In this document: positions 32,340 to 51,179 of the stretch, piece by piece
Layout of the letters: every line of letters starts with the position of its first letter
Position numbering within the stretch: position 1 is the stretch's first letter
Origin: Leptogorgia sarmentosa
Taxonomy: Eukaryota
DNA: 64,000 nucleotides
Direction of reading: 5' to 3'
NCBI GenBank assembly: GCA_964658305.1
Contig: OZ210885.1
Coordinates: 4,278,001 to 4,342,000 of the forward strand
Made by a program: the position numbers and the translations under genes
The notes under the pieces: generated by a model
Seen by the model: only the letters and a program-made list of their open reading frames with translations
What the model was told of the DNA's origin: nothing
Databases searched by the model: none

Positions 32340-33133
32340 ATGTTGTACGCAAGCGCTTACAGTAAAGCGAAGAAATTAGAGTATGAGCGAATCCGACGTG
32401 CAAAAAATCGTGTAGAGAAAAAAGAAGCACAGGTGCTAAAGCCGTGGCTTAAAAAGAAGTACACAGCAGTATATCAAGAGTTTATGAATTATTACACTAG
32501 ACTGCAAAAAGCTTACCCGACGGTGAAGAATTTGTCTGTAACACGGGAGTTTAAGAAGTTTATGGGTGTGTATTATAAAAAGACTTATATTTTTGTGTTT
32601 TAATTATGTTTTTTGTGTTTTAACAGAGGGAGACACGCTTCCAACACCACAAAACACAGGATATACGCCCGTACAGCTCTTTATACCAAGTTTGCCGATA
32701 TTGTCAGAAATGCCGAGTGTTACGGATGTGCTTCCCCTGTCGTCAAAAGACACCGCAGCAATAGTCGCCGCAGTTCCTTCTTTACCTGAAACGTCTAAAA
32801 CTGTATCTGAAACACCTATACTAGAGAGGCTACTTTCTCCGGACTACCAACCTTCACCACAGCCTGAAAGACAGCCTCCATCACCGACGACACCAGTTTA
32901 TGATCCATTATGGTCACCGTCTCCACCGCCACCATCCCCGGAGTCCAATTTACGCGAAGAAGTGGCTGAAATACTCACCGATTTATCGCAATCCTCGGTT
33001 CAGTCCGGAATGGATACCCCGCCATTTTATCCCGAGACGCTATGAAAGCTTTGACGTTACTCGGGACATAAGTGATTGGGATGATTTGTCCGATGTTATG
33101 AGTGAGGTATTGGACAGCTCAGACGATTTTTAA
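32340..33133 (+). CDS. Polinton accessory protein (basic helical N-terminus, Pro/Ser-rich and acidic tail), spliced
   Basis: A 61-bp GT-AG intron 32566-32626 joins ORFs 32340 and 32566 in frame (KKFM|EGDTLP); a possible frameshift near 33040 precedes the acidic tail. Confidence 0.65.
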
Positions 33134-33297
33134 AATTAGTGAATTTTTGTAGTAAATTTTTATACAGTTTTATTGTATTTTTAAAATAGAGTTTTTAAAA
33201 TAGAGTAGTAAATTTTTATACAGTTTGCTGTATTTTAAAGTAGAATTTTACAAAGTAATAAATTGTTTTTATAATAATTTTGTTTGTGAGTTATTTT

Positions 33298-33560
33298 AAA
33301 AAAGGGGGCGGGAACCAGTTATTAAAAAGGGGGTGGGAACTAGTTATTAAAAAAGGGGGTGGGAACCAGTTATTAAAAAGGGGGTGGGAACTAGTTATTA
33401 AAAAAGGGGGTGGGAACTAGTTATTTAAAAAAGGGGGTGGGAACTAGTTATTAAAAAGGGGGTGGGAACTAGTTATTAAAAAGGGGGCGGGAACCAGTTA
33501 TTAAAAAGGGGGTGGGAACTAGTTATTAAAAAGGGGGTGGGAATCAATTATTAAAAAGGG
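33298..33560. repeat. G-rich tandem array, about 10 x 25-26 bp (AAAAAGGGGGTGGGAACTAGTTATT)
   Basis: Read directly from the sequence, upstream of pPolB. Confidence 0.95.
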
Positions 33561-33742
33561 AATAAATTAAAATAACCTATGGTTATTTTACTGAAAGAAT
33601 ATTGAAGTGTGGTTATTTTACCGAAAGAATATTGAACCCATGGTTATTGAACCTATGGTTATCAAAGTGTGGTTATTTTACCGCACGTTTGTAAGTATAT
33701 AAGTGTTTGAGTTTTTTGCTGAAATTATTTTTATGAGCGAGT

Positions 33743-36700
33743 ATGGAGTGGCAGTGGGAAGACACAAATGATGTGTGGGTTTACGAAGTACCCGATCCAC
33801 AAACGGAGATGCAATATAGCGAGTGGGATTGGGGAGATACGAACGACTCATGGATTTGGGAAGTACCCGACCCAAGAACCATTTTAACAGATGAGAGTGT
33901 TCAGTATGGTGGAAAAAAGAGAAAGGCTAATGATGATGAAGTCAGCACCGGAGGAGTTTTATACAATTAAAGAGGTGCGACAGGTAAAGGCCAAAAAGTA
34001 TCGAACGACAGCTGTGGATTACACCGTACACTTTAATGATTTGGAGGATCTTGATCTTGTTCGCGAGTATGAACGTACTCAAGAAATTTTTGAGCACTTA
34101 CTAATTGATGTTACGGGCGGAATGGAAGAAACCGATATGATTCGATTTGTTTTACGTACAGATCAATTAGACAAACCCATATCCTTACCGTTTATGCCCG
34201 TTTCTCGGTTAACCCCAGAACGTGTTTTTTCACAAATCGAACGCATTGTACAATCCAAACAAGAGCTACGATTAAACGAGTCAGCTATTATTGATATTAT
34301 TCATGTTGAAATGCCGAATGGTAGCGGACGGAAAAAGCGAAATGCTCTTGATTTACAGAGTTATTTGCACAACAAGAGGTCAATGGTTGTTATTAAGAAC
34401 AAAGACAATCTGTGTTTAGCGCGTGCATTGGTTGTTGCTATAGCGAAAGTCGATAAAGATAGCAGGTACAAGTACTTGGTGGACTCGCGTAAATCAGCGC
34501 AGACAAAAGCGGCAAAGGAGTTACACGAAAAAGCGGGGGTTCCATTGGGATCATGTGGAATAGCCGAGGTGAAGCAGTTTCAAAAGTACCTTAATGAGTA
34601 TGAGATAAACATTGTTTCAATGGATGCAGGAAATACAATCATTTATCCTTCACAACCTATCGAAAGGGAGGTAAAACGTGTTTACCTATACCTACATAAT
34701 AACCACTACGATGTTATTACGTCAATGCCTGGATTTTTAAAACGAAGCTATTTTTGTCATATGTGTCGGAAGTCGTATGATCATACTGTGGATCATTTAT
34801 GCGATAGCCAATGCAAAATGTGTCGTGGGTTGAATTGTTTGTGGGGTGATTCAAGAGATTGTTTGGATTGCAATAGAATGTTTAAGAGCCAGACGTGCTA
34901 TGACCGTCATAAGGAACCTATTGGTGGTGGTCAGTCTGTGTGTCAACAAGTAAAGGGATGTCCAAGATGCGGAAAATCTCTAAGAGTTCATCACTTACAA
35001 AATCACTTATGTTTGCAAACAAAATGTAAAACGTGCGAGAAGATCATTGACGATAAAGATACACATTATTGCTACATGACAAAACCTGAAAAGAAAAAGG
35101 GAAGTGAGAAGGAAAGTTACGATCAACTGTTTTTCTTTGACTACGAGTGTCGCCAAGAGAATGGTGTTCATGAACCAAACCTATGTATAGTCCATAACGA
35201 GCAGGGAGACGAGTGGTGTTTTTCCGGAGAGAGTACAAACGAGGATTTTTGTGAGTGGTTATTTACAAAGGAGCATAGAAATTGTGTGTTTCTAGCCCAC
35301 AACTTTCAGGGGTATGACCGTTACTTTATTCAAAACTTTCTAAGTAAAAATGGAGTGAAATATGATGTTATTATGAGCGGAGCTAAAATTATAACCCTGA
35401 AAGTTCCGATGTTTAACATACGATTTATTGACTCGTTAAATTTTATTCCAATGGGTCTTGCTAAATTTCCAAAGACATTCGGGTTGGATGAGTTACATAA
35501 AGGATACTTTCCTCATTTGTTTAACAAGAGGGAGAATGAAAGCTACGTTGGTCCTATTCCGTGTGAACCATATTATAATCCGAATGAGATGAGTCCTGGA
35601 AATCGTAAAGCGTTTCAAAAATGGCATAAAGAGCAAAGAGACAATAATGTTGTGTTTGATTTTGAGAAAGAGATTATCAAGTATTGTAGATCTGATGTGG
35701 ATATTTTAAGACGAAGTTGTATGGAGTTTCGTGAACTGTTTAGAGATAGCACAGACATTGATCCGTTTGAAAAGTGTTTGACAATTGCTAGTGCTTGTCA
35801 ACTGGTTTACCGCACTAACTTTTTAAAGGAAAACACAATTGCTATTTTTGATTCCAAACGGGATTTGAAAGTAAAGCAATCCAACACAGCAATAAAGTGG
35901 TTATCGTACGTATCCGAAAAAGAGGGTATATGTATTGAACATGTGAGAAATGGAGGGGAGAGGCGTGATGGCAAGTACTCCTTTGATGGGTATCACGAGG
36001 AGTCAAACACAGTGTATGAGTTTCAAGGGTGTTTTTGGCATGGTGAGTAAAACTTTTTTTGTATACATAGAGGGGTTTGTATACTTAAATATCTTTTTGT
36101 TTTAGGGTGTTTAACATGTTACACACGCAATACCGTAAACCATATAAACGGGAAAACTATGGAAGATCTTTATGTTGAAACAAAAAAGAAAGTTCAATAC
36201 TTGAAGGAGGCAGGTTATAATATTGTGGAGAAGTGGGAGTGCGATCTAAAAAAGGAGCTGAATGAAAACAAGGAAATGCGACGTCATTTTGAAGAGCACA
36301 GTTTAGTGGATCCTCTACAACCTCGCGAAGCATTTTTTGGTGGGCGTACAAATGCGGTAAAGTTGTTTCACCGGTGTGAGAACGGAGAAAGAATAAAGTA
36401 CGTGGATTTTACGAGTTTGTATCCGTGGTGTAACAAGTCAACACGAATGGTTGTGGGACACCCTGAAATCATTACCGAAAACTTTGAGGACATTTCAACA
36501 TACTTTGGTCTTATAAAGTGTACAGTGTTACCACCTCGTGGGTTGTTCCACCCTGTTTTACCCTATCGCACCCCGGGTAAATTAACCTTCCCGTTATGTA
36601 AAGCGTGTGTTGATTCCACTAACCAAAACACTTGCACCCACACGGATTTGGAGAGAGCTATTCTCGGTACCTGGTGTCATATTGAGTTGTTAAAAGCGTT

Positions 36701-37719
36701 AGAAAAGGGATATCAAATTTTACAACTACACGAAGTATGGCATTTTCCAAAACAGTCCGAAGGGCTGTTTAAGGGGTATGTGGATACCTTCCTAAAAATA
36801 AAACAAGAGGCCAGTGGTTATCCAAAAGACTGTACAACACCGGAACAGAAGCGAGCATATATTGATGAATACTTGGAACACGAGGGGATTGCCTTGGATC
36901 CTGAGAAGATTGCACACAATCCTGGTTTAAGGGCCTTATCTAAACTTATGTTAAATTCATTTTGGGGTAAGTGCACCGCCCACCGCAGAACCCCCACTCT
37001 CTATACTATATTCACTATGATTTTCTATTTTAGGTAAATTTGGTCAGAGGGGAAATTTGGGTAAGACCGAAATGATAACAGAACCACAGAAGTACTTCGA
37101 TCTTTTGACCTCTGATGAGTTTGAAGTGACAAATACCCGTATAGTTAGTGATAACATGGTTGAAGTGCAATACAAAAGCGCTACCGATTTTGAAGAACCA
37201 AACAGCAAGGCAAATGTGGTTGTGGCAGCTTTTACTACAGCGTATGCCCGTTTGAAACTGTACGATTTATTGGACATGCTACAGGAACGTGTGCTTTATT
37301 ACGATACAGACTCGGTTATATACGTGTCAAAGCCTGATGAACCAGATCCCCCCTTGGGAAATTATCTTGGTGATTTGACTGATGAGTTGGATGGCGACCA
37401 TATCACTACGTTTATATCCGGGGGACCTAAGAACTATGCTTACCATACAGCCAATGGGAAGTCGGAGACAAAAGTGAGGGGAATTACCTTAAACCACACC
37501 ACACTGCAAAAGATAAATCCTGATGTTATCCGTTCACTTGTATACTTACATACAGAGTGTAACTCTCAAGCAAAAGTGACAATCGATATTCCGTTTAAAA
37601 TCACAAGGAACAGAAAAGAGAAAAACATAGTAACAAAGAGAATGAAAAAAGACTATCGAATTGTATATGATAAACGTGTTATTATTGACAATTATAGGAC
37701 GCTACCATACGGTTTTTAA
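33743..37719 (+). CDS. polB: Protein-primed family B DNA polymerase with Vsr-like insert; introns 36043-36105 and 36967-37033; probable N-terminal frameshift near 33948
   Basis: Exonuclease motifs FFDYEC, AHNFQGYD and YCRSDV; polymerase motifs YVDFTSLYP, KLMLNSFW|GKFGQ and YYDTDS; FQGCFWHG|CLTC is restored by splicing. Confidence 0.95.
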
Positions 37720-37763
37720 TGTAAATATATACAACATTTTTATTAAACATTGTTAAACAGTAT

Positions 37764-38126
37764 TTATTGTCTCTCTTTTGGTAACATATGACGATACTTA
37801 TCCGGACACTTTCCCCAAAAACCACCATCCTTTAGACTTGAATCCCCATACTTTGCGATTGTTCGTCTTAATTGTTCGCATTCAGGATGAGAGTTGACAC
37901 CCAGAGTGTAATAGTTTTCTTCCCAATGAATTTGCTCTCTCTTTATCATACGATGAAATAGTTGTGGTATGGAGTAAAAACCTTCAAAGAATCTATGTAT
38001 GTCATCATCTCCATTTACATAGTGCGTGTCTCCAGTTGTTTTGTTTGTGATAATAAAGTACATTCCATCACAGAAACACATCTTGTAAATGAGGTGAGTA
38101 AGGCAGCTCTCTCTCTTTATATACAC
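37764..38126 (-). CDS. Polinton hypothetical protein
   Basis: Open frame of about 105-120 aa, convergent with pPolB; no motif recognised. Confidence 0.5.
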   Translation of the reverse strand: MYIKRESCLTHLIYKMCFCDGMYFIITNKTTGDTHYVNGDDDIHRFFEGFYSIPQLFHRMIKREQIHWEENYYTLGVNSHPECEQLRRTIAKYGDSSLKDGGFWGKCPDKYRHMLPKERQ

Positions 38127-38251
38127 AATTTACATGCAGTTATTTTATGTGTGGTTATTTAACCTACACACAATTTACACACGGTTATTTTATGTGTGGT
38201 TAATCTTATATAAGGGTGTGATATTGATTACTTTTTCAGTATGTTTACAGT

Positions 38252-38800
38252 ATGGATGTAATAGTTGACGAGCTACGTAAGAGTGGTGTTGACATTGATA
38301 AAACAACACTATCTTATTTTATCAATAGGGCATATAATGATTATCAAACCGTGTATGAAAAGTTTTTAGATACGGTGTCCTATGAAGATTTATTTGTGGT
38401 ATGGAATCAACTACAACCCCGTTCCTTTGGTCATGTGATGGTTTTTTTGACAGTGGTACATTTACAAAATTTTACGGATCAGCAAAAGCGTGATGTGGTA
38501 CAACTTACAATCCCTGTATTGAAAAACATTGACATATCAAAGTACAAGAGAGAGAGGTCCGTTTTGGATAATTACACAGTGGCACGAAATATTATACACC
38601 GATTTTTACATCGTTATGTGTGTCGTCGCTTGGACCCTGTTTTTTGTCAGTGTTATGTTATTGCTAATGTTATTGGAGGATTAGCAAGACAATGGAGAGT
38701 GTGGGAGATAGCGCAGGGTGCTGTACGTTATTTGTACTATAAAATCCGGGTGCGTTATTTGTTCTATAAAATTCTACACTTTACCGGATTTGAAGTATAA
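38252..38800 (+). CDS. Putative viral Bcl-2-like protein
   Basis: Helical protein with BH1-like SFGHVMVFL. Its syntenic homologue at 58105-58478 reads INFGRAMAYL (compare NWGRIVAF). Confidence 0.5.
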   Translation: MDVIVDELRKSGVDIDKTTLSYFINRAYNDYQTVYEKFLDTVSYEDLFVVWNQLQPRSFGHVMVFLTVVHLQNFTDQQKRDVVQLTIPVLKNIDISKYKRERSVLDNYTVARNIIHRFLHRYVCRRLDPVFCQCYVIANVIGGLARQWRVWEIAQGAVRYLYYKIRVRYLFYKILHFTGFEV

Positions 38801-38814
38801 GACACTATACCGTG

Positions 38815-39435
38815 ATGGACGTAAGGTTTAAGTTACCTGCTAATTTTTACGTCTCGGGACAGAGTCAAAGTGGAAAATCGTTTTTTGTTCGTAAATTACT
38901 ACAACATTTAACATTGTTTAATCCTGTTCCTACAAAGATTATTTATTGCTATGGGGAGTATCAGAAAGAGTTTGCAGAATTGCAAAATGTGGAGTTGATC
39001 GAGGGATTTCCGTCAAATCTGAATGAGTTAACTCAAGGACATGACAATTCTCTTGTGGTATTGGATGATCTTATGGGGGAGTGTTCAAAAGATCATGTTT
39101 CCGACCTATTTACACGTGGATCTCATCATAAAGGCATTTCTGTACTATACCTTACACAGAACCTATTTCCTCTAGGAAAATTATCAAGAACCATTAGCTT
39201 AAATTGTCACTACATTATTGTCTTTAAAAATGCACGCGACTCTTTAGGGATTGCAACATTAGCTAAACAAATGTACCCGAGGCAAACTAACTACTTATTG
39301 GATTCCTTTCATGATGCCACAAAACAACCACATAGTTATTTACTTATTGATTGTCACCCTCAAACTCCTGAGAATTTACGATTACGTACCAACATTCTAC
39401 CTGGAGAAAGACAAATTGTGTATATAAAGAAGTGA
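38815..39435 (+). CDS. A32/FtsK-like genome packaging ATPase
   Basis: Walker A GQSQSGKS, Walker B VVLDD, FTRGSHH, LTQNLF and RTISLN. Confidence 0.93.
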   Translation: MDVRFKLPANFYVSGQSQSGKSFFVRKLLQHLTLFNPVPTKIIYCYGEYQKEFAELQNVELIEGFPSNLNELTQGHDNSLVVLDDLMGECSKDHVSDLFTRGSHHKGISVLYLTQNLFPLGKLSRTISLNCHYIIVFKNARDSLGIATLAKQMYPRQTNYLLDSFHDATKQPHSYLLIDCHPQTPENLRLRTNILPGERQIVYIKK

Positions 39436-39478
39436 AAACAAAGCTTGTATTCATTTGTGTAATGTGTTACGTACAATA

Positions 39479-40156
39479 ATGATATCAAGAAACATCACTG
39501 TATTTGTTACCGGTGGTACAAAAAAATTGACATTAAATGAACCTTTTTTAACACGAAATGATACAACAATACAGTTAAAACAGGCTACTGTTTTTTGGAA
39601 ATTCAAAAATGTTACATCTGCAAATAACAAATTTACAATTGATGGTGTGGAAAAAGAGATCGGTGTGGGATATTGGGATTTTGAACTTATTAAGGAGCGA
39701 TTAAAAGAGAGTAAAATTAATCTTACTGCTGTCATACCCAATAACACGTGCGACATTGAAAATAAAAACGGTAAAACCCTAAACTTAAAAAATCTTGGTC
39801 AACTAATTGGGTTTCCTGCTAACGAGAACATACCCCATGACACAGTCTTAAGATCACCAAATGCTGTTGACGTCAATCGTGGATTAAAATACCTAACAGT
39901 TACATGTGATCTTGCAAACCCGGAACGAAATGTTGACACGAATGGAAACACAAGTACAAACATTGCTTATCTACCCATCCCACCTGGTACACGTCTAAAT
40001 TCCTCTGTTTCCAGTTTTAACGAAAACCATCCAGTAGTTTCGCTTAAGGAAGACATTGTTACCGAAATGACATTTACCGTAACTCCAAACATTTCAAATG
40101 TTTCTGTGGATGTTGATGTGCTTCTTAATCTTGTTGTGAGTGGTATACATATGTAG
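39479..40156 (+). CDS. Putative minor capsid (penton-like) protein
   Basis: 225 aa, beta-rich; LGQLIGF...VDVNRGLKYLTVTCDL...IAYLPI resembles the LGF...D...l.v.cDiv pattern of Polinton pentons. Confidence 0.55.
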   Translation: MISRNITVFVTGGTKKLTLNEPFLTRNDTTIQLKQATVFWKFKNVTSANNKFTIDGVEKEIGVGYWDFELIKERLKESKINLTAVIPNNTCDIENKNGKTLNLKNLGQLIGFPANENIPHDTVLRSPNAVDVNRGLKYLTVTCDLANPERNVDTNGNTSTNIAYLPIPPGTRLNSSVSSFNENHPVVSLKEDIVTEMTFTVTPNISNVSVDVDVLLNLVVSGIHM

Positions 40157-40186
40157 TGCACGTAGCATATGTTACTCATTTATAGG

Positions 40187-40522
40187 ATGTCTTCGTATGT
40201 GAAAAGAACCCTACCGCTCCTTCAGACATTAGCAACATCAAAACCTGCACTGCGTAACGCCATCCTCCAGCACGCACCAAAGGATTTGATTAAAGCTATT
40301 TCTGAAATTATTTTAAACGTGCTTAAAGGGGCTATAAAAATATCCCCAAAACAAAAAAAGCGTCTAGCTCGTTACAAAAATCAACTACGCAGCCTTGCAA
40401 GTAACAGAGTAGCAGAGAAAGCAAAGAGAAGGTTTCTCACTCAAAAAGGTAGTGGGGGAGGTGCTGTCTTAGCGTCAGTACTTGTACCTTTAGCTATTGC
40501 AGCAATTACTGGTCGGGGATGA
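40187..40522 (+). CDS. Conserved small basic Polinton core protein (PW-like)
   Basis: AISEIILNVLKGAIKISPKQKKRLARYK...QKGSGG followed by a hydrophobic tail; a homologue lies at about 57070-57387. Confidence 0.8.
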   Translation: MSSYVKRTLPLLQTLATSKPALRNAILQHAPKDLIKAISEIILNVLKGAIKISPKQKKRLARYKNQLRSLASNRVAEKAKRRFLTQKGSGGGAVLASVLVPLAIAAITGRG

Positions 40523-41268
40523 AGCGTATGGTTTTGATTCCTGAAGAGAAACTTATTCAATATGAGCAACAAAAAGGGGGTGGAACACACCCGTATATAG
40601 ATATTACACCCTACACACCCTACACACCCTACACACCCAATACTGGACAGTATGGTTATGGGAAAAAAGAGGAGGAAAGGGAGTTATCAAATGATATTAT
40701 TGTTCGTGGAATTCCAAAGACTATGAAAAACAGAGCTACCGCCCTCTTAGAGCACCTAAAAACAAAACCTGATGCTATGGGACAAGTTACTATAAATGGA
40801 ACCCTCATACAAAAATCAAACATTTCGGATTTAGTTTCCAATGCTATGAGATCACGTAAAAACTTTAACCCTACAGGTTCAGAAGAGTTTTTTAGTGTGT
40901 TAAGTGACTTAAACGTGCCAAGAGATCTTGTAAGAAACGAGGGAAGCATGAATAATCGTAAACCAAAGCGAAAAGTCAACCAAAAGGGAGGAATTATAAG
41001 ATGGATGGATGATATGGCTGCAGGGATTGCCAAACTAGGGAAACCGGTTGTATACAAAGCAGCAGATTGGATGACAAAAAAGGAACTGGGTGAAGAAGGG
41101 TACAAAAAGTATAAAGCAAAAAGAGCGAAAAGAGAGAGAGCGAAAAGAGAGAAAGCAAGAAAAGCGAGAATAGCAAGAAGAGCAAGAATAGCGAGAGCAA
41201 AAAAACAAAAGGGTCGGGGAAAACAACAAGGGGAAAAAACACCTAAATGGGAGTGTTATAAAGGATAA
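40519..41268 (+). CDS. Conserved Polinton protein with Arg/Lys-rich C-terminus
   Basis: MKRMVLIP start (ATGA overlap), GQVTINGTLIQKSNISDLVS motif, homologue at 56631-57049, several QKGG motifs. Confidence 0.75.
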   Translation: MKRMVLIPEEKLIQYEQQKGGGTHPYIDITPYTPYTPYTPNTGQYGYGKKEEERELSNDIIVRGIPKTMKNRATALLEHLKTKPDAMGQVTINGTLIQKSNISDLVSNAMRSRKNFNPTGSEEFFSVLSDLNVPRDLVRNEGSMNNRKPKRKVNQKGGIIRWMDDMAAGIAKLGKPVVYKAADWMTKKELGEEGYKKYKAKRAKRERAKREKARKARIARRARIARAKKQKGRGKQQGEKTPKWECYKG

Positions 41269-41344
41269 CTTTTTTTTGTAAATAATTATTGTTGTTGTTG
41301 AAAAATGAATAAAACATTATTTGGAAAGTTGAATTTTTTATTTA

Positions 41345-41842
41345 AAGTAATCTTTTACAACATTGACTAAGTCCACAAATGGATTTGCTAGTAATATCAA
41401 AGTGTTTTTTAACATAACATTACGATCGTTAAACAAGGCATTATTTCCAAACATATTTACAATCTCACTCATATTACGTCCACAAGCTCTCTGATATAAG
41501 TAAAAAACACAATAGTGACCGCACACTTCAGTCCATGAACTTTGTAATTTTTTTTCGTGTATTATATTTCCATTCAACAGAATTAAAATAAGTTTTAAAA
41601 GATTTGTTATAATGTTCCGGGGGTTGTCCATAACTATCAAAAAATTCTCCAGTGTTGCGTGTGGGAAAGTAAAACACCACCCAATGTGTTCCAGGTTTTG
41701 TAGAGGGATCTGTATTAGCTACAAACCCACAAGGGAATGTGCTTAAGGATTTTGGTAACTGGTCGGCGGGAAACACACCACAAAATGTCTTTGATGTTTT
41801 TGAATTATGTTCCAAGGCACGTTCTATTTGTCGAGTATTCAT
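41345..41842 (-). pseudogene. Adenain-like cysteine protease, frameshifted
   Basis: NTDPSTKPGTHWVV, FFDSYG, then LQSSWTEVCGHYC in another frame. The shift falls in the A8 run at 41548-41555; a second probable shift lies near 41415. Confidence 0.9.
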
Positions 41843-43227
41843 GACGACATGTCATACATTACATTTCTGTCACCATCAATCTGTATAATATTTTCAAAAT
41901 CTCCGTAACACACAAGAGCAAGAGCTTCTGTTGGTGCTGTGGCAAATGTTATGTCAACTGTCAATGCACCGTGCTGTACAGCATTAAAATAGGGAGAAGA
42001 ACCACACATGTCGGGAGTTAAGTCAAAAGCATAGATGGTGTAACCTCTAGGATAATCTTCACGGGAAATATCAAGTCCTGTATTGTAATTCATTTTCCCT
42101 GTACCAGAGAACAAAGTACCATATGCCTGCATAAAATGCTCTTTATTATTTGTGTAATTCAAATTGAATTGTTTGAAAGGTAACTCCTCCCCATTTACTG
42201 TAAGTGTCACAGATGTTACACCATAATTTTTGAAATTAAATGGATTTGTTCCATAAGTTCCATTGAAAGCTGTGGCATCCACAAGACCAAAAACAAATGT
42301 TTTTGGTATTGTTCCTGTAAAAATGTTATCCTTCCTTATAGATGGAACATTTCCAGGTACAACAAATGATTTACACTCAACACGGCGTGTGGGGTAGATA
42401 GCAGGCATTCTTTTTAGTGCGGTTGTATGGGCTGCCTGAACAGCTTGACTCACACGAACTTTACGAACTTTAAGAATAACATCGGTCAACTTCACTTTGG
42501 CATTAATGGGGGTTGTGTTTTTATCTGTAAGACAAAATTGATCAGGGCTTCGGTTGAGAATCAATTTAACATTCACCCGATCCAACAAGAGACGATCGCT
42601 CATAAACGCATCAACAAAAACGGGTCCCTCCATTGTGAGAAGCTTTCCGTCACGTACAAGCTGATGTCTTTTAGCAAAACCTTGATTTCCGCTTCCTGGT
42701 GTCATAACTTTATGATCAGTACCCGATATGGTTAATGTTTTTTCTCCCGGAAGGCTTCCTGTATCATCCATTTTTCCCGGTGTGTCTTTGTAGTATAATG
42801 CAGACGTAAGCTGTGATTGTTTGGCGGTAACATCATAATTCAACAATGTTTCCAAATAGGCACGGTAAGGGTATGTTCCTATGGCAGGTGTTACTTGCTT
42901 TCCATTCATGTACACATCAACTTGTTTAAACATTGTGTGTAAAAAGTTGTTGACTGGGGCAATGTTTGATTGTGCTGCTCCATCCAAATCCGAGCCGTCA
43001 GCCTTTACCACTTTTCCCTCAACAACCAAAATTGTTTTAGATAAGTCAATATAGTCATCATCGCCCGTAACCAGAAATGTAATAGGACCGTCATCATTCT
43101 CAACACTTGAAAGGGGGTGGTACTCAATCCAACGACCTTTCTCCAAACTTGCTTGTGTAGGTGGAATGTTAAATAATTCAACCTCTGTTTTACCACAGCG
43201 TTTTGAGTTTTTGTGTACGTAATTCAT
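41839..43227 (-). CDS. Major capsid protein (double jelly-roll, PY)
   Basis: 462-aa intact frame: ELFNIPPTQ, NNFLHTMFKQVDVYMN, YPYRAYLETLLNY, NPFNF and YAFDLTPD. Confidence 0.95.
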   Translation of the reverse strand: MNYVHKNSKRCGKTEVELFNIPPTQASLEKGRWIEYHPLSSVENDDGPITFLVTGDDDYIDLSKTILVVEGKVVKADGSDLDGAAQSNIAPVNNFLHTMFKQVDVYMNGKQVTPAIGTYPYRAYLETLLNYDVTAKQSQLTSALYYKDTPGKMDDTGSLPGEKTLTISGTDHKVMTPGSGNQGFAKRHQLVRDGKLLTMEGPVFVDAFMSDRLLLDRVNVKLILNRSPDQFCLTDKNTTPINAKVKLTDVILKVRKVRVSQAVQAAHTTALKRMPAIYPTRRVECKSFVVPGNVPSIRKDNIFTGTIPKTFVFGLVDATAFNGTYGTNPFNFKNYGVTSVTLTVNGEELPFKQFNLNYTNNKEHFMQAYGTLFSGTGKMNYNTGLDISREDYPRGYTIYAFDLTPDMCGSSPYFNAVQHGALTVDITFATAPTEALALVCYGDFENIIQIDGDRNVMYDMSS

Positions 43228-43285
43228 TTTTGAGGACCTCCTCACTGATTCAATGTTAAACTAAATGTGAATACTCTTTCTTTAT

Positions 43286-43786
43286 TTAACCAAATATATC
43301 CTTTGCGGGTAAAGACTTTCTCTGTTTTGATCTCGGAAACACACCTTTACCATTTCTACGAACACCTTTTCTCTTTTTCCCACCCATTTGAAACATGGGG
43401 TCCAAATCACTCCAACTAGGTTCCCTCGCCTTACGTCCTTCGATAAAAAACCCACCCCCTTTTTGAGACTTTTTTGTTTTCTTTTTTGGTTTTTTCTTCT
43501 CTACCTTTGCACGTTTTGCTGGTTTGTCTTTCTCTTTTATAGCCTTTATAGTTCTTTTTCCCGCAAGATCTACTGATTGTATTGCAGCCTGTTTCCCACT
43601 TTCACGCGCTGCATTCTTCACGGATTTACCGTCAATTACACCAGCAACCATATTTTTTAACAACTCTCCACCCACTTCAACTCCAATCTTTCCTATTTCC
43701 CCCAAAACAGGTTTAAGTACATTTCCCACAGCTGAGACATTTTTACCACGAAATATACCCCCAACACCATATCCTGTTTGTGTCAT
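43286..43786 (-). CDS. Basic core/membrane-active Polinton protein
   Basis: QTGYGVGGIF, an amphipathic helix, a Lys-rich tail and a DIFG C-terminus; usual position upstream of MCP. Confidence 0.75.
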   Translation of the reverse strand: MTQTGYGVGGIFRGKNVSAVGNVLKPVLGEIGKIGVEVGGELLKNMVAGVIDGKSVKNAARESGKQAAIQSVDLAGKRTIKAIKEKDKPAKRAKVEKKKPKKKTKKSQKGGGFFIEGRKAREPSWSDLDPMFQMGGKKRKGVRRNGKGVFPRSKQRKSLPAKDIFG

Positions 43787-43788
43787 TT

Positions 43789-43911
43789 TTAAAAGTAACT
43801 TTTTTGTCGAAAGTGTAGTGTTATCGATGTATGTCCGTGCTCAAATGAAATACGTTCGTTTGTGCTACTCCTTAAAAGAACCTTCACCTCTTCAATAACA
43901 TAACATGACAT
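43789..43911 (-). pseudogene. Collapsed canonical minor capsid (penton, PX) gene, 40 codons
   Basis: MSCYV fused to IEEVKVLLRSSTNERISFEHGHTSITLHFRQKSYF*. These resemble the first and last motifs of a Polinton penton, located directly after the integrase. Confidence 0.65.
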
Positions 43912-43933
43912 AAATACACACACAATTTGCTTT

Positions 43934-45010
43934 TTAAATATTTTTTAATTGAGATGCAGGTATCCATGAATTAAATTTCGCTGGATATCCCAACCATTTT
44001 ACAAAGTATTGCTCATTTTTACCTCTACCTTTCTTTTCTAAAATCTCCTCTACCTCATACACATCATCCTCCTTAATAACTTTTTGTAACTCCTCATTGT
44101 AAAATGTACCATCAAGCTCTTCATGATCATAGTCTTTTAGTTTATACACAGGTGGATGTCGAGGTATTTGTTTACTCACAGTAAAAATTTCTTTTGAAAA
44201 GTTGGGGAGGTATCCCTTTTCAAATTTACGCTTCATTTTACTTATACGTACTTGATCACCTATAGAGAACTTATACTTTACCCTTTTCTTACGTGCTGGG
44301 TGATCACCGTATAGAGTGTGCCACACCTCCTGTTCATTTTGTACTGTAACATTCACAGGTTTTTTCTTAATACTACGATGTTTACTATGATTATAGGAGT
44401 ATGCTAATTTTTCCAACATATCAATATATCTACGTGTTTTCTTAGCTGTAAAAAAGCGCCACATTTTTGTTTTTAATGTACGAATAAGGCGCTCAACAAC
44501 CGATGCTTTTGTTTCATTATAAGTGTTATAAAGTTGAATGTCCTCCTTTTTCATTAGTGCTTTAAAGGGTTTATTGAAAAACTCTGTTCCCTGATCTGTT
44601 TGAATTTTTTGTGGTTTTCGTCCTGACTCCAAAATCACTTTAAAAGCCTCTACCAATGCAGCTCCTGTTTTAGTTTTTAGGGGTATAATCCACGCATATT
44701 TTGAAAACACATCAATGCATACAAGTAAATATCGGTATCCGTCATTTTCACCAGACAAAGGCTGCATATCGGCTAAATCCATTTGCCATAACTCGTCAAT
44801 ACCACCAACAATAACACGATTTCGTTTAAATCTACGACGTGCTGGTTTATGTAGTGTATAAGTATCTTGACTCATTAACCACTTTTTAATTTTACCGCGC
44901 GATATATCAAACTTCCCATCTTTCTTTACGTCATTGTATAAACGTTCCACCCCACCAAATCCCCCTGATCGTTTTGGGTTATAGTAAACACTAGATAAGT
45001 ATTCTTCCAT
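43934..45010 (-). CDS. int: Retroviral-like DDE integrase with C-terminal chromodomain
   Basis: WQMDLAD, QTDQGTEF and VVERLIRT; chromodomain YEVEEIL...YFVKWLGYPAKFNSWIP; intact. Confidence 0.97.
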   Translation of the reverse strand: MEEYLSSVYYNPKRSGGFGGVERLYNDVKKDGKFDISRGKIKKWLMSQDTYTLHKPARRRFKRNRVIVGGIDELWQMDLADMQPLSGENDGYRYLLVCIDVFSKYAWIIPLKTKTGAALVEAFKVILESGRKPQKIQTDQGTEFFNKPFKALMKKEDIQLYNTYNETKASVVERLIRTLKTKMWRFFTAKKTRRYIDMLEKLAYSYNHSKHRSIKKKPVNVTVQNEQEVWHTLYGDHPARKKRVKYKFSIGDQVRISKMKRKFEKGYLPNFSKEIFTVSKQIPRHPPVYKLKDYDHEELDGTFYNEELQKVIKEDDVYEVEEILEKKGRGKNEQYFVKWLGYPAKFNSWIPASQLKNI

Positions 45011-45041
45011 CCCCTTTTTAAAAGTGAGGGGGTATAGAATG

Positions 45042-45260
45042 TTAGTCCTCTTTTATGGTAAAGGGCTCCCCCTCCTCCTCAATTGTTGGTAACTTGGCAA
45101 CAGGTAAATACTTTTTTCTTGTTTTCCCATGATACTCAGTCTTAAGACAACCCTCAATATTTGTATCCCCACGACGCATAGTCACACCCAATTTACACAT
45201 TTGTTTTTTATCAATATCTTTATTTATACGCTTTTTTCTTTTACTATTAGCGCTACCCAT
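45042..45260 (-). CDS. Small basic protein with N-myristoylation-like start
   Basis: Begins MGSANSKRKKR (MGxxxS plus a basic patch). Confidence 0.5.
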   Translation of the reverse strand: MGSANSKRKKRINKDIDKKQMCKLGVTMRRGDTNIEGCLKTEYHGKTRKKYLPVAKLPTIEEEGEPFTIKED

Positions 45261-45310
45261 GTTTACGCTGTAAATAATTGTTATCATCTAAATGTAACTT
45301 TACATGCTTT

Positions 45311-46366
45311 TCACTTAAGTATTATCGTTCCAACGTAAGAACCAAGAAAATCTTGAAAGTCCATAATGTATCCATTTGTGTGTAATGCATTCCATATCTT
45401 CTCAACAATGGGTCTCTCTGTAATTATACCATATTTCTCAATCTCCTTTTTCATTACACTCATCTCAAACTCTGATAACTGTGCGCATAGTTTTGTGTAA
45501 AAATCCGAAGTTAAAAGATTAATGCGTCTTAAAGTGCGACCATAAAAAATATCGCGAAAGTCTAACTCAGTGTACAACATGTTTACCATATGAATATCGA
45601 GAAACAACTAAGATAGTTTATTCAGCTTTTACGGTTTTATTTGGAGGTCCAGAACCGCGCGGTCGTCCGCCTTTCACAACTTTATCACACCATGTGTCAT
45701 AATATTGATTGGTAAATCCATGTTTAAAGCAGGCATACCATATCCTCTCAATAATTCTTTTGTCTACGAACTCCATATAAATACCCCAGGCATTATCGGC
45801 CTCAAACTCACACAACTCTCTATTGGTTATGATGTCATTTTTACACAAATACTCAATAGGAATGCTTCCAAAAACTTTCTTAATATAGTCTGCCTGAGGT
45901 ATCTCAACGCGCATCACAATCTCTTCGTTCACGTAAAAATCCAGAATCGTCATTGTTGCTGCAATAAGGTAGAAATGATTTTTGTAATAAAGTTGCTTTG
46001 CTTTATATCAAAATTATTGTGGTTATTATATATGCAGTTTTAAAACTGGTAGTTAATTTACATGTTGTTATTTTATATGAGGTTTTAATACCTACGGTTA
46101 TACAGTTAATAGTGAACCACAAGTGTGTCAGGCCAAACACTAAAGGGTTGTCGAATGTATCCACATCTAAAACAACTATCCCAAATTCTTTTAACCATTA
46201 TTTTGTCCACATATATCGCATCCTCTGTCTCCTCATCGTAAATACAGTTCTCATCTAGCTCCTCATTTGGAATATTTTCACAAACTACGTTAGCAAAATT
46301 CACTCCACACATGTTGATACTTAATAAAATCTCCCCCTCTAGATAGAAGTCCAAATCAATTGTCAT
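45311..46366 (-). CDS. Three tandem small paralogous ORFs (45311-45607, 45618-45953, 46106-46366)
   Basis: Shared N-terminal LD[FI] and C-terminal VDKRIIERIWYACFKHGF / VDKIMVKRIWDSCFRCGY / TERPIVEKIWNALHTNGY. Confidence 0.7.
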
Positions 46367-46470
46367 CTTGACAGCTTATAGTAAAATGAATAGCTGTGCT
46401 AAATACAGACCCATATATATCATAAAACCCCTGTTTTTGTAACACTCTCTTTATTTACATTCCATACGTA

Positions 46471-48660
46471 ATGAAGAGAGGATATCCATATACAAGTGGT
46501 AACCTCAATTTTGGTTACGAATATGATTACAAACCAAAAACCTCTAAAAGTGGTGACGGTGGTGGTGGTGGGGGTGGTGATGGCACCCCGGGTCCGCGCG
46601 GGCCTACAGGACCTCAAGGACCTACAGGACCTAAAGGAGATAAGGGCGAAACGGGACACACCGGAAACGTAGGACCTCGTGGACCGCCTGGATCTAAAGG
46701 ACCTGTCGGGCCTAAAGGAGAAAAAGGAGATAAAGGGAATGATGGTATTCAGGGCCCTCCAGGCCCTACAGGACAGCAAGGACCTCGAGGAATACAGGGG
46801 CTAAGCGGAAACGACGGAGCCCGCGGGCGTGAGGGGCCTCAAGGACCTCGAGGGATTCCTGGTACGGCTGCCAACAAAGGAGATAAGGGAGACACCGGTG
46901 ATCAAGGACCCCCCGGATTGCAAGGAGCACAAGGACAGCGAGGACCCCCTGGACCTAATGGTGCTACGGGTTCACAAGGTCCTACAGGACCTAAAGGGAG
47001 TACGGGACAAACAGGTCCCCAAGGAAACCCAGGCCCCAAAGGAGCTAAAGGTGATCCTGGTCATACAGGAAACACAGGCCCTCGTGGTTTAACAGGTCCT
47101 GCTGGAAATACAGGCCCACAAGGTCCAATAGGTCCAAAAGGACCAAAAGGAGATAGAGGGGATAGAGGTCCCCCAGGAAGTGATGGTAATAACGGAGCTC
47201 AAGGCCCTCAGGGGCCTGCTGGACCTACAGGGCCTACAGGAAATCAGGGTCCTCAGGGATTACGTGGACATAAAGGTCCAAAAGGAGATCCGGGAAATCA
47301 AGGGCCTAAAGGAAATATAGGTCCTACAGGAAACACTGGAAACACAGGAGCTGAAGGTCCATCGGGACCTATGGGTCCAACAGGACCCACGGGAGCTCAA
47401 GGACCGCGTGGGATAAAAGGAACTAAAGGGGATAAAGGAGACAAAGGAGATAAAGGGGATACAGGTGTTTTTGACCCCACCACAAAAAAGCAGCTTATTT
47501 TAGTGAATAAAAACTTTCAAAACGTGACGTACCCCCCAGGCACTTTTCAATCCTTTGAGTTTGAAGATTCGGGTACAGAAGCACCCTGGAATAGTGGTTA
47601 TGGAACTAATCTCCAAGTATCAAAAAGTGCTACAACTGAAACTGTTCCAATTTTGGGTCCACGTGCTCCTATTGAAATAACCCAAGAGGTTAATACAAAG
47701 TATACGACAACAGAAATCTGGTTTTGTAATCTGTACAGTAATGCACAACCATTCGGAATGATATTTGCTACTGAGGATCCTAACAATAGTGCACTGAAAT
47801 CCATATCGACAAACATTGAAGATAGTGGAGGTCTGGCACAAAGCGCTCCCATGAAACATTTAGGAGCTGTGGTGGGGTACAATAATAAAACGTACAATTA
47901 CTATCTAGTATGGGTTTCAGCTAGTGTGAGTTTTAACAAAATTGAAGTTGGACTCGAATACTATAGTAACAAGTTAGCGGAGGGAAAAATGAGCCTAAAT
48001 GTTTACGGTGGATATACATTTGACAAAATATCCTTCAATCAGTACAACGAAGCAAATCTCACAAACAAACTCCACTTTCCCTATCACAAAGACTTTGAAA
48101 GACAAAAGGTTAGAGGTGTTATGGAGGGAAACACTCTTCTTACAGGATTCGAGCAGTCTGATGGAACTATTCTTGCAAATAACAATTTAAGAATATCTGA
48201 AGTAAACATACTACCTTATGCTCAATTACATATGGCAAAACTTACACTAAAATATGTCGAAAATACATTCGGTACTACTATAATGACCACCTCATATTAT
48301 ACATCACCCTCTCAATCAACTGGTGGGTGGTGTCACGCAAAAGAACCTGTCTCCGGATACCCCATGCCTACATATCCAATAGTGAGTGGGGACCCTTTAC
48401 GTATAACACTATTGACCCACACATTTGACACTGACAACACTATCAGTGCCGATTTTGAAGTAGAATTTCGTTTGACTCTACACTCAAACGCTACAACAAC
48501 AACATCCACACACTCCTTGGGTACAATAAAATACAAAGACAAGAAACAAACATCTGGTACTGCTGCCTACCCGTTAGTAGCGCCTGGAAAAAAATATCTC
48601 CTCAATCACATGTTTCTTTACACATACCATCAGGAGATCCTCCTATTGTTTACTCTTTAG
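46471..48660 (+). CDS. Collagen-like fibre/spike protein, 729 aa
   Basis: Short N-terminal tail, Gly linker, 98 in-register X-Y triplets at 46582-47463 (all Gly-X-Y except one Ala), then a Thr/Tyr-rich C-terminal region of about 400 aa; single intronless frame. Confidence 0.9.
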   Translation: MKRGYPYTSGNLNFGYEYDYKPKTSKSGDGGGGGGGDGTPGPRGPTGPQGPTGPKGDKGETGHTGNVGPRGPPGSKGPVGPKGEKGDKGNDGIQGPPGPTGQQGPRGIQGLSGNDGARGREGPQGPRGIPGTAANKGDKGDTGDQGPPGLQGAQGQRGPPGPNGATGSQGPTGPKGSTGQTGPQGNPGPKGAKGDPGHTGNTGPRGLTGPAGNTGPQGPIGPKGPKGDRGDRGPPGSDGNNGAQGPQGPAGPTGPTGNQGPQGLRGHKGPKGDPGNQGPKGNIGPTGNTGNTGAEGPSGPMGPTGPTGAQGPRGIKGTKGDKGDKGDKGDTGVFDPTTKKQLILVNKNFQNVTYPPGTFQSFEFEDSGTEAPWNSGYGTNLQVSKSATTETVPILGPRAPIEITQEVNTKYTTTEIWFCNLYSNAQPFGMIFATEDPNNSALKSISTNIEDSGGLAQSAPMKHLGAVVGYNNKTYNYYLVWVSASVSFNKIEVGLEYYSNKLAEGKMSLNVYGGYTFDKISFNQYNEANLTNKLHFPYHKDFERQKVRGVMEGNTLLTGFEQSDGTILANNNLRISEVNILPYAQLHMAKLTLKYVENTFGTTIMTTSYYTSPSQSTGGWCHAKEPVSGYPMPTYPIVSGDPLRITLLTHTFDTDNTISADFEVEFRLTLHSNATTTTSTHSLGTIKYKDKKQTSGTAAYPLVAPGKKYLLNHMFLYTYHQEILLLFTL

Positions 48661-48950
48661 AATTTAAGCAAGTAAAACCCACAACAAAAATTGGTAATGA
48701 ATCTGTTCTAACATTCAATGCTGTACAAATACCAGATTTATCAGGAATTTAATAAAAATGTTTAAAAAACTTTAATGTGTGTTTACAATATTTTACAAAT
48801 GTTTAAAAAAGTGTACATCCGGGTCCAAGAATAAATTCAGGTCCAGAAACATATGTAGAAAAAAACGGTGGTGTTCTCCATACTTCACCAATTTTCAAAG
48901 GCTTAACAAAAAGCTTTTCAGGTATCACTACACAAATTGTAAAAAACGCT

Positions 48951-49724
48951 TTAAAATAGTGTCTTCCCATCCCTTGGTAAGGCTAGAGGGTTGCTATAAA
49001 TCTCCAAAATTGAATCCAGTTTGGTATTAGCTGCCGCAACATCTTGAGCTAAACTGTGTATATCTTCGGACATATCTTTCACTTTGTGGCAAACACGTCC
49101 CATTAACTTCAAAATTCGTATACCTATAGTTGAAGCTTCCCTTTCGCTACCACCTCTTGTTGTAGAAGTTTCCCCTGACGTCTGCGATGTGGTTGATTCA
49201 TCTGGTAACCCCTTTTTGGTCGCCTCAACTTTTTGTGTGATTGCACTTAATTGCTGTGTGATTGTGGCAATGCATGGTGGTGTATAGTGCATGTTATGCA
49301 TTAGACTTGTTAGGTAGGTTTTCAGCTCTGCTGGAACATTACTATAGCCCATGCTATGTTTCGCTATGGATGCAACCAGATCGCTGAGAATATGCTTTGT
49401 TTGACGGCTCCGTGAAAGTTTGAATGCTAACGTGCACTCCTTAACATCTTCAGGTATTTTGTCATCTTTAATCACCTTCTGTTTCACTCTTTTAATTCGG
49501 GAACGTAGTGGTGTTGCGGAGAAATTCTTACCATCGTCCCACCAGATATGTAAAGTAACATGTTTATGTATAATGTCACTATTTGGTTTGTAGGGTTCGT
49601 TCTTCATGGTTGCAACCCACCAATATTTATCACTCTTTTTTATCATGTAGGGTAGTATGCGTTCCCACATATATTCGCTCACGTTTACGACAACACATCG
49701 TGAAAAACTCATCGCGAGATACAT
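48951..49724 (-). CDS. Polinton hypothetical protein with C-terminal coiled coil
   Basis: 257-aa open frame; the ATG directly follows an acceptor-like TTTCATTTTACAG. Confidence 0.6.
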   Translation of the reverse strand: MYLAMSFSRCVVVNVSEYMWERILPYMIKKSDKYWWVATMKNEPYKPNSDIIHKHVTLHIWWDDGKNFSATPLRSRIKRVKQKVIKDDKIPEDVKECTLAFKLSRSRQTKHILSDLVASIAKHSMGYSNVPAELKTYLTSLMHNMHYTPPCIATITQQLSAITQKVEATKKGLPDESTTSQTSGETSTTRGGSEREASTIGIRILKLMGRVCHKVKDMSEDIHSLAQDVAAANTKLDSILEIYSNPLALPRDGKTLF

Positions 49725-49782
49725 CTGTAAAATGAAACAAAACAACAATTTAGTAAAGCTTAAATACTTAAAACCCGTAGGT

Positions 49783-49915
49783 TAAATAACCGCAAGAAGA
49801 CTAACCGCACGCAAAATAACCGCAAAAACACTAACCGCACGCAAAATAACCGCAAGAACGCTAACCACACGCAAAATAACCGTAAGAACGCTAACCGCAC
49901 GCAAAATAACCGCAC
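49783..49915. repeat. Tandem repeat, about 4.5 x 30 bp, of TAACCGC motifs in a divergent promoter region
   Basis: AAATAACCGCAAGAACGCTAACCGCACGCA units followed by a TATA-like TATTTAA at about 49926. Confidence 0.85.
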
Positions 49916-49950
49916 GTACAAAGACTATTTAAGAGCGTGTATGCGAGTTG

Positions 49951-50490
49951 ATGCACAAAATGAATATTATCGGGATAATCGATTTAGATGGCTTTTGTAT
50001 ACAACAAACATTTTTCTGTCGCGAACTTGGACTCATAACCTATGGTGACACATATGGAACATCGTTTCACTTTAACACACCGTTAGAATATGGAAAATTA
50101 AGCGAAAAAGATAAAACACAAGTAAACTACGTGCAAGAATACATCCACGGTTTGTCGTTGGGGGATAATAAAGCTATGAATCAAAACATGGTAAACGTTA
50201 TTGTACAAAGATTTTACGATGCCTATCGTATGGATAGCAACAGTGCCATCGCCTACAAGGGGGGATCATTTGAAAAAACACTACTCGAAAAACTGAACAT
50301 ACCGTCATTCAACTTAGAGCTTATTGGCTGTCCAAAAGCTGAAAATATTTATCATGAAATGGCTTGGTTAGAGTGTTGTGGACAACACACACTCCTTAAA
50401 AACAAAAATGAAACTTACAAACACTGCCCTCGTGTTGAGGTAGAGGCATATCTGCACTGGTTCGAACAATATTGGATGTGGAAGTATTGA
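49951..50490 (+). CDS. DEDD-family 3'-5' exonuclease-like protein
   Basis: IIDLDGF...RELG, IHGL, YKGG..EK, NLE..GCP and C..H...HC pattern. Confidence 0.7.
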   Translation: MHKMNIIGIIDLDGFCIQQTFFCRELGLITYGDTYGTSFHFNTPLEYGKLSEKDKTQVNYVQEYIHGLSLGDNKAMNQNMVNVIVQRFYDAYRMDSNSAIAYKGGSFEKTLLEKLNIPSFNLELIGCPKAENIYHEMAWLECCGQHTLLKNKNETYKHCPRVEVEAYLHWFEQYWMWKY

Positions 50491-50608
50491 TAAAAATCGT
50501 CTGCAAACCAGAAAATTGCCTAAAAATACGGAAAAATGAAGACAAAAACATGTAAATAATCTTAAAAATCGCTATTAAAACACATTTTACTACTAATATT
50601 ATTGTGTA

Positions 50609-50681
50609 CCCTGGTTAGCTCAATTGGTAGAGCCTCGGATTGTAGCTCCGAAGGTTGTTGGTTCGAGTCCAGCCCTGGGGA
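50609..50681 (+). tRNA. tRNA-Tyr(GTA)-like gene, intronless, inside the Polinton
   Basis: 73-nt cloverleaf: acceptor CCCTGGT/CCTGGGG+A, D arm GCTC-AATTGGTA-GAGC, anticodon arm TCGGA-TTGTAGC-TCCGA, T arm GTTGG-TTCGAGT-CCAGC; intact A and B boxes. Confidence 0.88.
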
Positions 50682-50829
50682 TTACTTATTACTGTTACTT
50701 ATTATAACACCCACAAATGCGCATGCGCAGTAAACTTACAAACACACAAAACACGTAAAACGCAAAACACACAAACACACAAAACACGTAAAACGCGCAA
50801 ACACGTAAAACGCGCAAACACGCAAAACG

Positions 50830-50990
50830 CGCAAAACACGCGCAAACAAAACTCTCGAGAAATATCCACGCGTGAATATCTACACGCGAGAATATCTATC
50901 GGGAATATAGCGCCTTCCCCCGCGTGACCGCGCAGCGGTCCACGCGTGGGGGCCTGGGGGAAGGCGCTATAGTGCCGGGATAGTACTACT
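50830..50990 (-). repeat. Polinton right TIR
   Basis: Reverse complement of 30859-31019. Confidence 0.97.
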
Positions 50991-51179
50991 CTACTCAGTA
51001 GTCATAATATAACTAATCACATTAATATCTTTTATTTTCTTCTTTGTTCTGTTACTATACTATCTTACTTATCTATATAGATAGTGCCACTACTTTGGCA
51101 ATACCTGTAAATTTAGGTCATGCTAATAAAGTATTTTGAAAAAAAAAACCCCAAAAAAACCCGGTACTTTTGGTTATCA

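Follow-up and report, generated by a model that had tools for sequence, protein, structure and literature searches.

An intron-free tyrosine tRNA gene near the end of a Leptogorgia sarmentosa Polinton, likely carried by the element under selection

A Polinton in the genome of Leptogorgia sarmentosa carries, close to its right end, an intronless tRNA-Tyr(GUA) gene that is likely borne by the element and maintained by selection rather than a SINE or a capture that happened once. The window that we analyzed is a stretch of 64,000 nucleotides (GenBank assembly GCA_964658305.1, contig OZ210885.1, positions 4,278,001 to 4,342,000 of the forward strand), and all positions are given within it. An initial annotation of this DNA had already proposed that the tRNA gene belongs to the element and is selected for its structure. 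The proposal gained from three sides, as the gene is a member of a multicopy family, one of its stem pairs has changed on both sides in that family, and tRNA genes recur in distant Polintons.

RESULTS

The element and its genes

Long TIRs, AGT termini, and a 6-bp TSD are features of Polinton/Maverick elements, and the element in the window has all of them, together with a protein-primed DNA polymerase B (pPolB; Pfam E values of 3.8e-25 and 3.1e-20 for PF03175) and a retroviral-type integrase (Table 1). The 20.1-kb insertion is probably young, because the first 161 nt of both TIRs are identical. Polintons also carry a packaging ATPase, a maturation protease, and a double jelly-roll major capsid protein; the ATPase and protease candidates had weak matches, and the 462-aa ORF is the probable capsid gene. 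The 179-aa ORF is presumably a DEDDh exonuclease, which it resembles in its motifs. This exonuclease-like ORF was used as the marker for finding relatives of the element.

Several other features of the locus were observed. The pPolB pieces (33891-37719) are split by short GT-AG intron-like stretches, and 8 of 11 relatives have a continuous frame of 1210-1333 aa. Another Polinton ORF, at 31507-31836 on the minus strand, has two GRF zinc fingers. The target site (30847-30858 and 50991-51006) is a near-palindrome centered on ACTACT/AGTAGT that resembles a Polinton terminus, and the insertion possibly went into the end or junction of another element. Between the tRNA gene and the TIR lies a perfect 12-bp palindrome (50718-50729), which fits the NRF1 site; it has one match in the window, versus 6 of 100 shuffles with at most one mismatch. 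The flanking DNA is typical of an animal genome, with DDE_Tnp_4 transposases (6906-7658, 13569-14426, and 51466-51858) and an endonuclease/reverse-transcriptase LINE (26097-28421).

Table 1. Features of the element and of its tRNA gene, by position in the window
Feature	Position	Strand	Basis or remark
Left target-site duplication CTACTC	30853..30858	+
Polinton/Maverick element, 20,132 bp	30859..50990		TIR arms, AGTAGT termini, 6-bp TSD, pPolB and rve integrase
Left TIR, about 200 nt	30859..31057	+	161 outermost nt equal to right arm; without tRNA
Protein-primed DNA polymerase B (pPolB), 3 ORF pieces	33891..37719	+	PF03175
Probable packaging ATPase	38815..39435	+	Pox_A32, E 0.0057, weaker than cut-off
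Probable cysteine protease, 2 overlapping frames	41338..41851	-	Weak match to protease S273R, E 0.047, weaker than cut-off
462-aa ORF, probable major capsid protein	41839..43227	-	No Pfam or PDB match
rve integrase with chromodomain	43934..45010	-	rve, E 1.4e-13
Collagen-repeat protein, possibly a fiber	46471..48660	+
179-aa ORF, stop 118 nt 5' of tRNA	49951..50490	+	No Pfam or PDB match
Intronless tRNA-Tyr(GUA) gene, 73 nt	50609..50681	+	C1-G72, A73, U32/G37/C38 loop, 7-66 unpaired
A box (tRNA positions 8-19)	50616..50627	+	Sequence
GTA anticodon	50642..50644	+
B box (T arm)	50660..50670	+
AT-rich trailer without T4	50682..50704	+	Overlaps 10-nt local repeat
Right TIR with GC-rich terminal hairpin	50783..50990	-
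Right target-site duplication CTACTC	50991..50996	+	Perfect match to left
First T4 3' of tRNA	51030..51033	+	In host DNA outside element

Anatomy of the tRNA-Tyr gene

The gene is the single tRNA that ARAGORN called in the 64-kb window (tRNA-Tyr(gta), 50609-50681, plus strand), and the program gave no match in 10 block shuffles of 230 kb of DNA (the window plus 40 loci). Rfam model RF00005 matched it over the full model with a modest 54.8 bits (E value, 4.7e-9). The full cloverleaf of the initial annotation stands with respect to the GTA anticodon, the A and B boxes, and the anticodon stem, which is paired at 5/5 positions, but the acceptor stem is imperfect: 20 of the 21 cloverleaf pairs are formed, with 7-66 unpaired and 4-69 and 5-68 being G-U. 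The variable loop is short, and position 26 is a C. The A box (50616..50627) was assigned by the box consensus. The minimum-energy fold computed without constraints is not a cloverleaf (z score, -0.5), and the cloverleaf lies within 1.8 kcal/mol of it.

According to the table in PMC9976931, the eukaryotic tyrosine identity set consists of A73, C1-G72, G34, and U35. The window gene holds this set completely, and the naming of C1-G72 and A73 as tyrosine identity elements agrees with that table. The Tyr-GUA intron is described as widely conserved across Metazoa (PMC12530127). The intron expected after position 37 is absent from the gene, which ARAGORN likewise called as intronless, confirming the first description; in this the Polinton tRNA-Tyr departs from a typical nuclear gene of the host.

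The gene had been placed inside the right TIR. It is indeed near the right end, but it is not part of the TIR, as 309 nt separate its 3' end from the element terminus and the right TIR, about 200 nt long, begins about 100 nt beyond the gene. ARAGORN found no counterpart at the left element end in the window. Since the gene is in neither TIR arm, we regard it as single-copy cargo that the repeat does not include. As was also noted initially, no direct repeat brackets the gene at this locus, its sequence has no SINE-like body or poly-A tail, and there is no close terminator, the nearest T4 on the tRNA strand being 348 nt downstream, beyond the element. The trailer of 352 nt folds strongly (z score, -6.5), largely from a TIR hairpin that is present at both ends. 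MIR949 matches on this hairpin (E, 0.39) were taken as chance.

A diverged tRNA-Tyr family in public sequencing runs

The tRNA region was present whole or in part in 13 of the 18 runs listed (four studies), and 6 of the 18 were examined (X1, X4, X7, X8, X12, and X13). Positions 50575-50715 were covered by 42 contigs, 20 from X1, 14 from X4, and 8 from X8. Run X13 (share, 0.08) gave none, and X7 and X12, where coverage stops 5' of the tRNA at 50582 and 50542, respectively, were excluded as evidence. X4 and X8, which have different species labels, both contain many diverged copies of the exonuclease-like gene and of tRNA-Tyr.

No variant is listed in the anticodon arm (positions 27-43) across the 42 contigs. 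The D arm, the acceptor 5' strand, and the variable loop do vary, and the variable positions are 4, 5, 7, 17, 26, 44, and 45. Pair 11-24 is changed on both sides, from C-G to U-A, in X1, X4, and X8. For all of these counts, the contigs are unphased, variants near their ends are hidden, and placement favors similar contigs; we infer that both changes of pair 11-24 sit on the same contigs because the depth values at 11 and 24 match (1548.8 in X1, 22.3 in X4, and 15.9 for the contig concerned in X8). The gene is thus neither confined to this copy nor lacking in covariation, the two outcomes that the initial annotation had seen as fatal to its reading. Loose contig ends carry other acceptor 3' strands, whose pairing with the 5' strands cannot be phased. 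Among the matches listed, 7 of 8 divergent 3' ends have a T4 within about 10 nt of the tRNA, and the discriminator region is kept in every divergent 3' end that reaches it. The suggested read-through into the TIR may therefore hold for the window subfamily but is not a general trait.

The contigs nearest the window, as assigned by depth match, differ from it at position 69 and have a trailer 15 bases shorter. They also have 7-66 unpaired, and the sequence listed for them contains no T4; the imperfections are thus mostly subfamily traits. With these two features the window subfamily looks relaxed, and little mature tRNA may come from it. A single X1 contig carries a tandem pair of Tyr-like copies with 84 letters between them, and the second copy matches the window exactly over 50603-50671.

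Contig depth does not equal copy number, and overlapping contigs raise it. Depth over the tRNA was about equal to that over the exonuclease-like gene in X8 and about twice as high in X4, and it exceeded that of the 5' flank 1.8-fold in X4 and X8 and about 7.5 times in X1 (summed, tRNA core). The excess in X1 leaves room for copies outside Polintons. The depth data argue against thousands of SINE copies, without assigning every copy to a Polinton. They bear on whether the gene is a mere passenger, namely, a stretch copied from a host tRNA array, or the front part of a small SINE derived from a tRNA, that this Polinton subfamily captured and that is now decaying. The imperfections of the window copy (7-66 unpaired, C26, no T4 inside the element), the tandem pair on one contig, and the depth above the flank would fit such an origin. 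However, the hallmarks of insertion (flanking direct repeat, body, and poly-A) are all absent, the depth relative to the exonuclease-like gene is not orders of magnitude higher, and the diverged copies retain a Polinton-type 5' flank (contigs from 50575). A direct copy of a host gene would moreover be expected to carry the Tyr intron, given its wide conservation in Metazoa (PMC12530127). We consider a passenger quite unlikely.

tRNA genes in distant Polintons

Relatives of the exonuclease-like gene were sought without conditioning on a tRNA, and 40 metagenome loci with 24-53% identity were obtained. They sit on tree branches distant from the window element (the tree leaves out 9 of the 40 loci, which had stops or short matches). 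Rfam tRNAs were present at 14 of the 40 loci, with 24 genes for Met, Ala, Trp, His, Leu, and Val and one unclear; none of the 40 loci had a tRNA-Tyr. Of the loci that extend 600 nt or more downstream (25 in all), 12 are tRNA bearing. The same locus also holds a pPolB or integrase in 11 of the 14 cases. A single metagenome assembly supplied 11 of the 14 tRNA loci, so they do not represent independent hosts. Among relatives with long downstream DNA, the nearest one, L001, has no tRNA, and none was found in three pPolB-bearing viral contigs. ARAGORN calls with long introns, obtained at a relaxed threshold, were implausible and were ignored.

A T4 follows within 12 nt in 23 of the 24 tRNA genes of the relatives, versus a background of 12%. 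When compared with the fourfold sites of the neighboring exonuclease-like gene, in sequence pairs that are not independent, tRNA identity was 0.97 versus 0.53 for Met (45 pairs; 60-nt flanks, 0.56/0.60), 0.87 versus 0.32 for Trp (3 pairs; 60-nt flanks, 0.40/0.45), 0.86 versus 0.30 for His (1 pair), and 0.94 versus 0.74 for Ala (10 pairs). The three Trp genes have four two-sided pair changes, a number reached in 9 of 500 shuffles. High tRNA identity could also come from exchange of only the tRNA among elements or from repeated capture from the host. It is likely that these small DNA viruses, the window element and the related Polintons with conserved tRNA genes, make tRNAs that support their own protein synthesis.

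In the Met(CAT) genes of L010, L013, L014, L015, L020, L022, L024, L028, L029, and L035, U1 faces U72 in 10 of 10 aligned (mean identity, 97%), and their T loop is initiator-like. A Val(UAC) gene at L008:5921-5993 has a body like that of Ala(UGC) of L014 and L022, apparently after an anticodon shift, and its T4 is 22 nt away.

Other Pol III-type units in related Polintons

A conserved Pol III-type gene of about 100 nt (A box, B box, and T-run) adjoins the presumed TIR at 13 of 55 loci by pattern (L012:6770-6885, L013, L014:4411-4520, L015, L018, L019, L020, L022, L023, L024, L028, L032, and L035:5928-6035), and L010 is similar. Its middle is like a spliceosomal intron of 39-48 nt, with a 5' splice site, a CTAAT-type branch point, a pyrimidine tract, and a CAG abutting the B box, and in L019, L023, and L035 the ends of the unit pair as in the acceptor stem of a tRNA. 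The unit, which is absent from the window element, may serve as a splice-signal decoy or give a Pol III RNA that is itself spliced. In the same slot, L025:2043-2126 and L037:601-684 have a tRNA-like gene of 84 nt whose anticodon arm is aberrant; it is called by ARAGORN and not by Rfam and shares a 5'-splice-site-like motif with the 100-nt unit.

Histone 3' stem-loops above the Rfam gathering score were found in 11 of the 40 related loci (L007, L008, L018, L019, L024, L028, L029, L030, L032, L035, and L039), many of them directly 3' of the exonuclease-like gene, and there were more below the threshold. Polintons with such stem-loops may end their mRNAs in the way that replication-dependent histone genes do. 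Rfam gave none in the window element (30500-51500). The terminal repeats of related Polintons (L014:4600-4900 and the ends of L020, L028, and L035) contain abundant TTAGGG and an abundant motif that resembles the YY1 site.

Either a tRNA or a Pol III-type unit is present at 19 of the 25 related loci with at least 600 nt downstream. This frequency would suit a role at the DNA level, in which a TFIIIC/Pol III barrier or a nucleosome-free site protects the integrated element, or the origin at its terminus, against silencing and the RNA is a by-product. The subterminal position of tRNA-Tyr and the different isotypes in different elements are also in line with a barrier, and it is reported for yeast that an intronless tRNA gene insulates and an intron-containing one does not (PMC4090602). 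Yet A and B boxes suffice for this function, and the unvarying anticodon arm, the paired stem changes, and the terminators are left unexplained; besides, the tRNA is at one element end only. A pure TFIIIC insulator, as proposed at first, likewise fails to explain why anticodon arm and identity elements are kept, and we regard a DNA-level role as improbable.

Intronless tRNA-Tyr genes in viral contigs

With a degenerate anticodon-arm pattern, 11 intronless tRNA-Tyr genes were found in viral contigs; the pattern had no match in prokaryote genomes. All of the viral genes have C1-G72 and A73, and their stems covary freely (nine aligned, near-duplicates dropped). The U32/C38 loop of the window gene is present in 3 of the 11 and C32/A38 in the other 8, with no mixed form. 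The U32/C38 contigs are giant-virus-like, one being a GVMAG record and one having Rpb1 genes beside the tRNA. As other viral tRNA-Tyr genes have this loop, its odd form in the window need not be decay. The giant-virus genes (L043, L044, and L048-L050) are like the window gene in being intronless, in C1-G72 and A73, in 47-54 identical positions out of 73, and, for three of them, in U32/C38. They differ in that they reside in much larger genomes, often in tRNA clusters, and the likeness need not reflect a common origin. No match to the exonuclease-like ORF, the capsid-like ORF, or the tRNA's own 30-mer was found in the viral contigs.

DISCUSSION

We think, with a little more confidence than doubt, that the gene is the Polinton's own intron-free tRNA-Tyr(GUA), which would be transcribed by Pol III, matured and charged by the host, and would add splicing-independent tyrosine tRNA during replication. 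Host RNA polymerase III would read the gene from its internal A and B boxes, the transcript would be trimmed by RNases P and Z and given its CCA end, host TyrRS would charge it, and ribosomes would use the product. In this way, tyrosine tRNA would be supplied without the splicing endonuclease while the element replicates. Yeast with only intronless tRNA-Tyr is reported to be viable and to charge the tRNA, at 67% of the normal level (PMC6582322). If the genome were free and linear, transcription of the window copy by Pol III would proceed for 309 nt until it reached the end. The Polinton gene is like host nuclear tRNA-Tyr(GUA) in its identity elements and promoter type and unlike it in having no intron, and for this reason pseudouridine-35 is predicted to be absent from the Polinton tRNA.

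Why tyrosine should be supplied is less evident. The Polinton ORFs have a Tyr content of 4.6%, versus 2.8% in ten other ORFs of the window (P = 1.5e-4). Over the same pPolB segments, Tyr content is about 4-5.6% in relatives whose available DNA has no tRNA-Tyr versus 4.4-5.1%. Relatives without tRNA-Tyr are thus equally Tyr rich, so codon demand does not single out tyrosine, and we rejected a tyrosine-specific codon shortage. The turnover of isotypes suggests a more general gain, such as resisting tRNA depletion, as has been offered for protist elements. The tRNA supply would be upheld when infection hits host tRNA synthesis, splicing, or stability.

tRNA genes had been thought undescribed in this virus group, which does not hold, as they are reported in protist Polinton-like viruses (PMC12220804) and in virophages (PMC6905037). 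For the former, the tRNA section of PMC12220804 gives 558 Rfam tRNA matches in 8300 genomes and proposes codon compensation or the countering of tRNA depletion. Like the window element, these are Polinton-type genomes with tRNA genes (15-40 kb), but the rows consulted are protist hosts, one part all from one dinoflagellate, and the section holds no selection test; the tables of that paper do not contain the strings 'tRNA-Tyr', 'Cnidaria', or 'Maverick'. Virophages are small double-stranded DNA viruses of the same broad group, with tRNAs unlike those of the host and with Met(CAT) common, as in the relatives studied here; they differ in depending on giant viruses in protists, and the anticodons listed in PMC6905037 do not include Tyr. 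A figure legend in PMC8502044 also flags tRNAs in MELD viruses with other replicases. The main text of the coral polintovirus paper (PMC11131425) has no occurrence of 'tRNA'. No description of tRNA genes under selection in animal Polintons turned up in our literature search, although one may exist in sources beyond its reach (subscription journals, Repbase entries, and the supplements of bioRxiv papers).

VA RNAs are adenovirus Pol III RNAs with internal A and B boxes and are not cloverleaves. Together with the TMERs of gammaherpesviruses, they are the model for another explanation, in which the gene makes a tRNA-shaped Pol III RNA that does not decode and acts as a decoy or regulator, possibly binding TyrRS or antiviral sensors, or is the leader of a read-through RNA. 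The TMERs of MHV68 resemble the window gene in being Pol III genes with internal A and B boxes, clustered at a genome end, in a nuclear DNA virus of animals, and they are tRNA-like yet uncharged (PMC4337559). Also in favor of such an RNA, the window copy has no terminator and a strongly folded trailer, relatives carry a clearly non-decoding tRNA-derived Pol III unit beside the TIR, and the first pair of their Met tRNAs is non-standard. Against it, TMERs lead into miRNA hairpins (PMC4337559), whereas the window gene keeps its full decoding anatomy, including the complete tyrosine identity set. The structured trailer that could make a TMER-like leader belongs to the window copy, its fold is largely the TIR hairpin found at both ends, and 7 of the 8 divergent copies listed terminate at once after the tRNA. 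The VA-like RNA of the initial annotation found no backing in Rfam, which gave no VA RNA match at E<=1 over 30500-51500. An RNA of this kind seems unlikely to us, and an own, charged tRNA-Tyr is the reading that we prefer.

Virus-encoded tRNA is already known; what is new is an intronless and apparently selected tRNA-Tyr in an animal Polinton, amid subterminal Pol III genes in its relatives. What viruses gain from tRNA genes is a question pursued so far chiefly in phages and giant viruses. In an animal virus that is small, nuclear, and integrating and whose tRNA genes appear to be kept by purifying selection, many natural variants are at hand in host genomes, and these genomes are amenable to routine tRNA-seq and Pol III ChIP. 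A tyrosine tRNA made without an intron would have no need of the host's tRNA splicing. On the practical side, counts of host tRNA genes will be contaminated by those that Polintons carry. As Polintons are related to adenoviruses, their Pol III genes bear on how VA RNAs arose. More tentatively, and with doubt outweighing confidence, animal Polintons may keep a selected near-end Pol III cassette that combines their own charged tRNAs (intronless Tyr here; Met, Ala, Trp, His, and Leu in relatives) with tRNA-derived RNAs that mimic splice signals, and this cassette may be the living link, missing so far, that connects tRNA genes with the VA RNAs of adenoviruses. If this is true, a 20-kb nuclear animal virus would rewire host translation with its own tRNAs.
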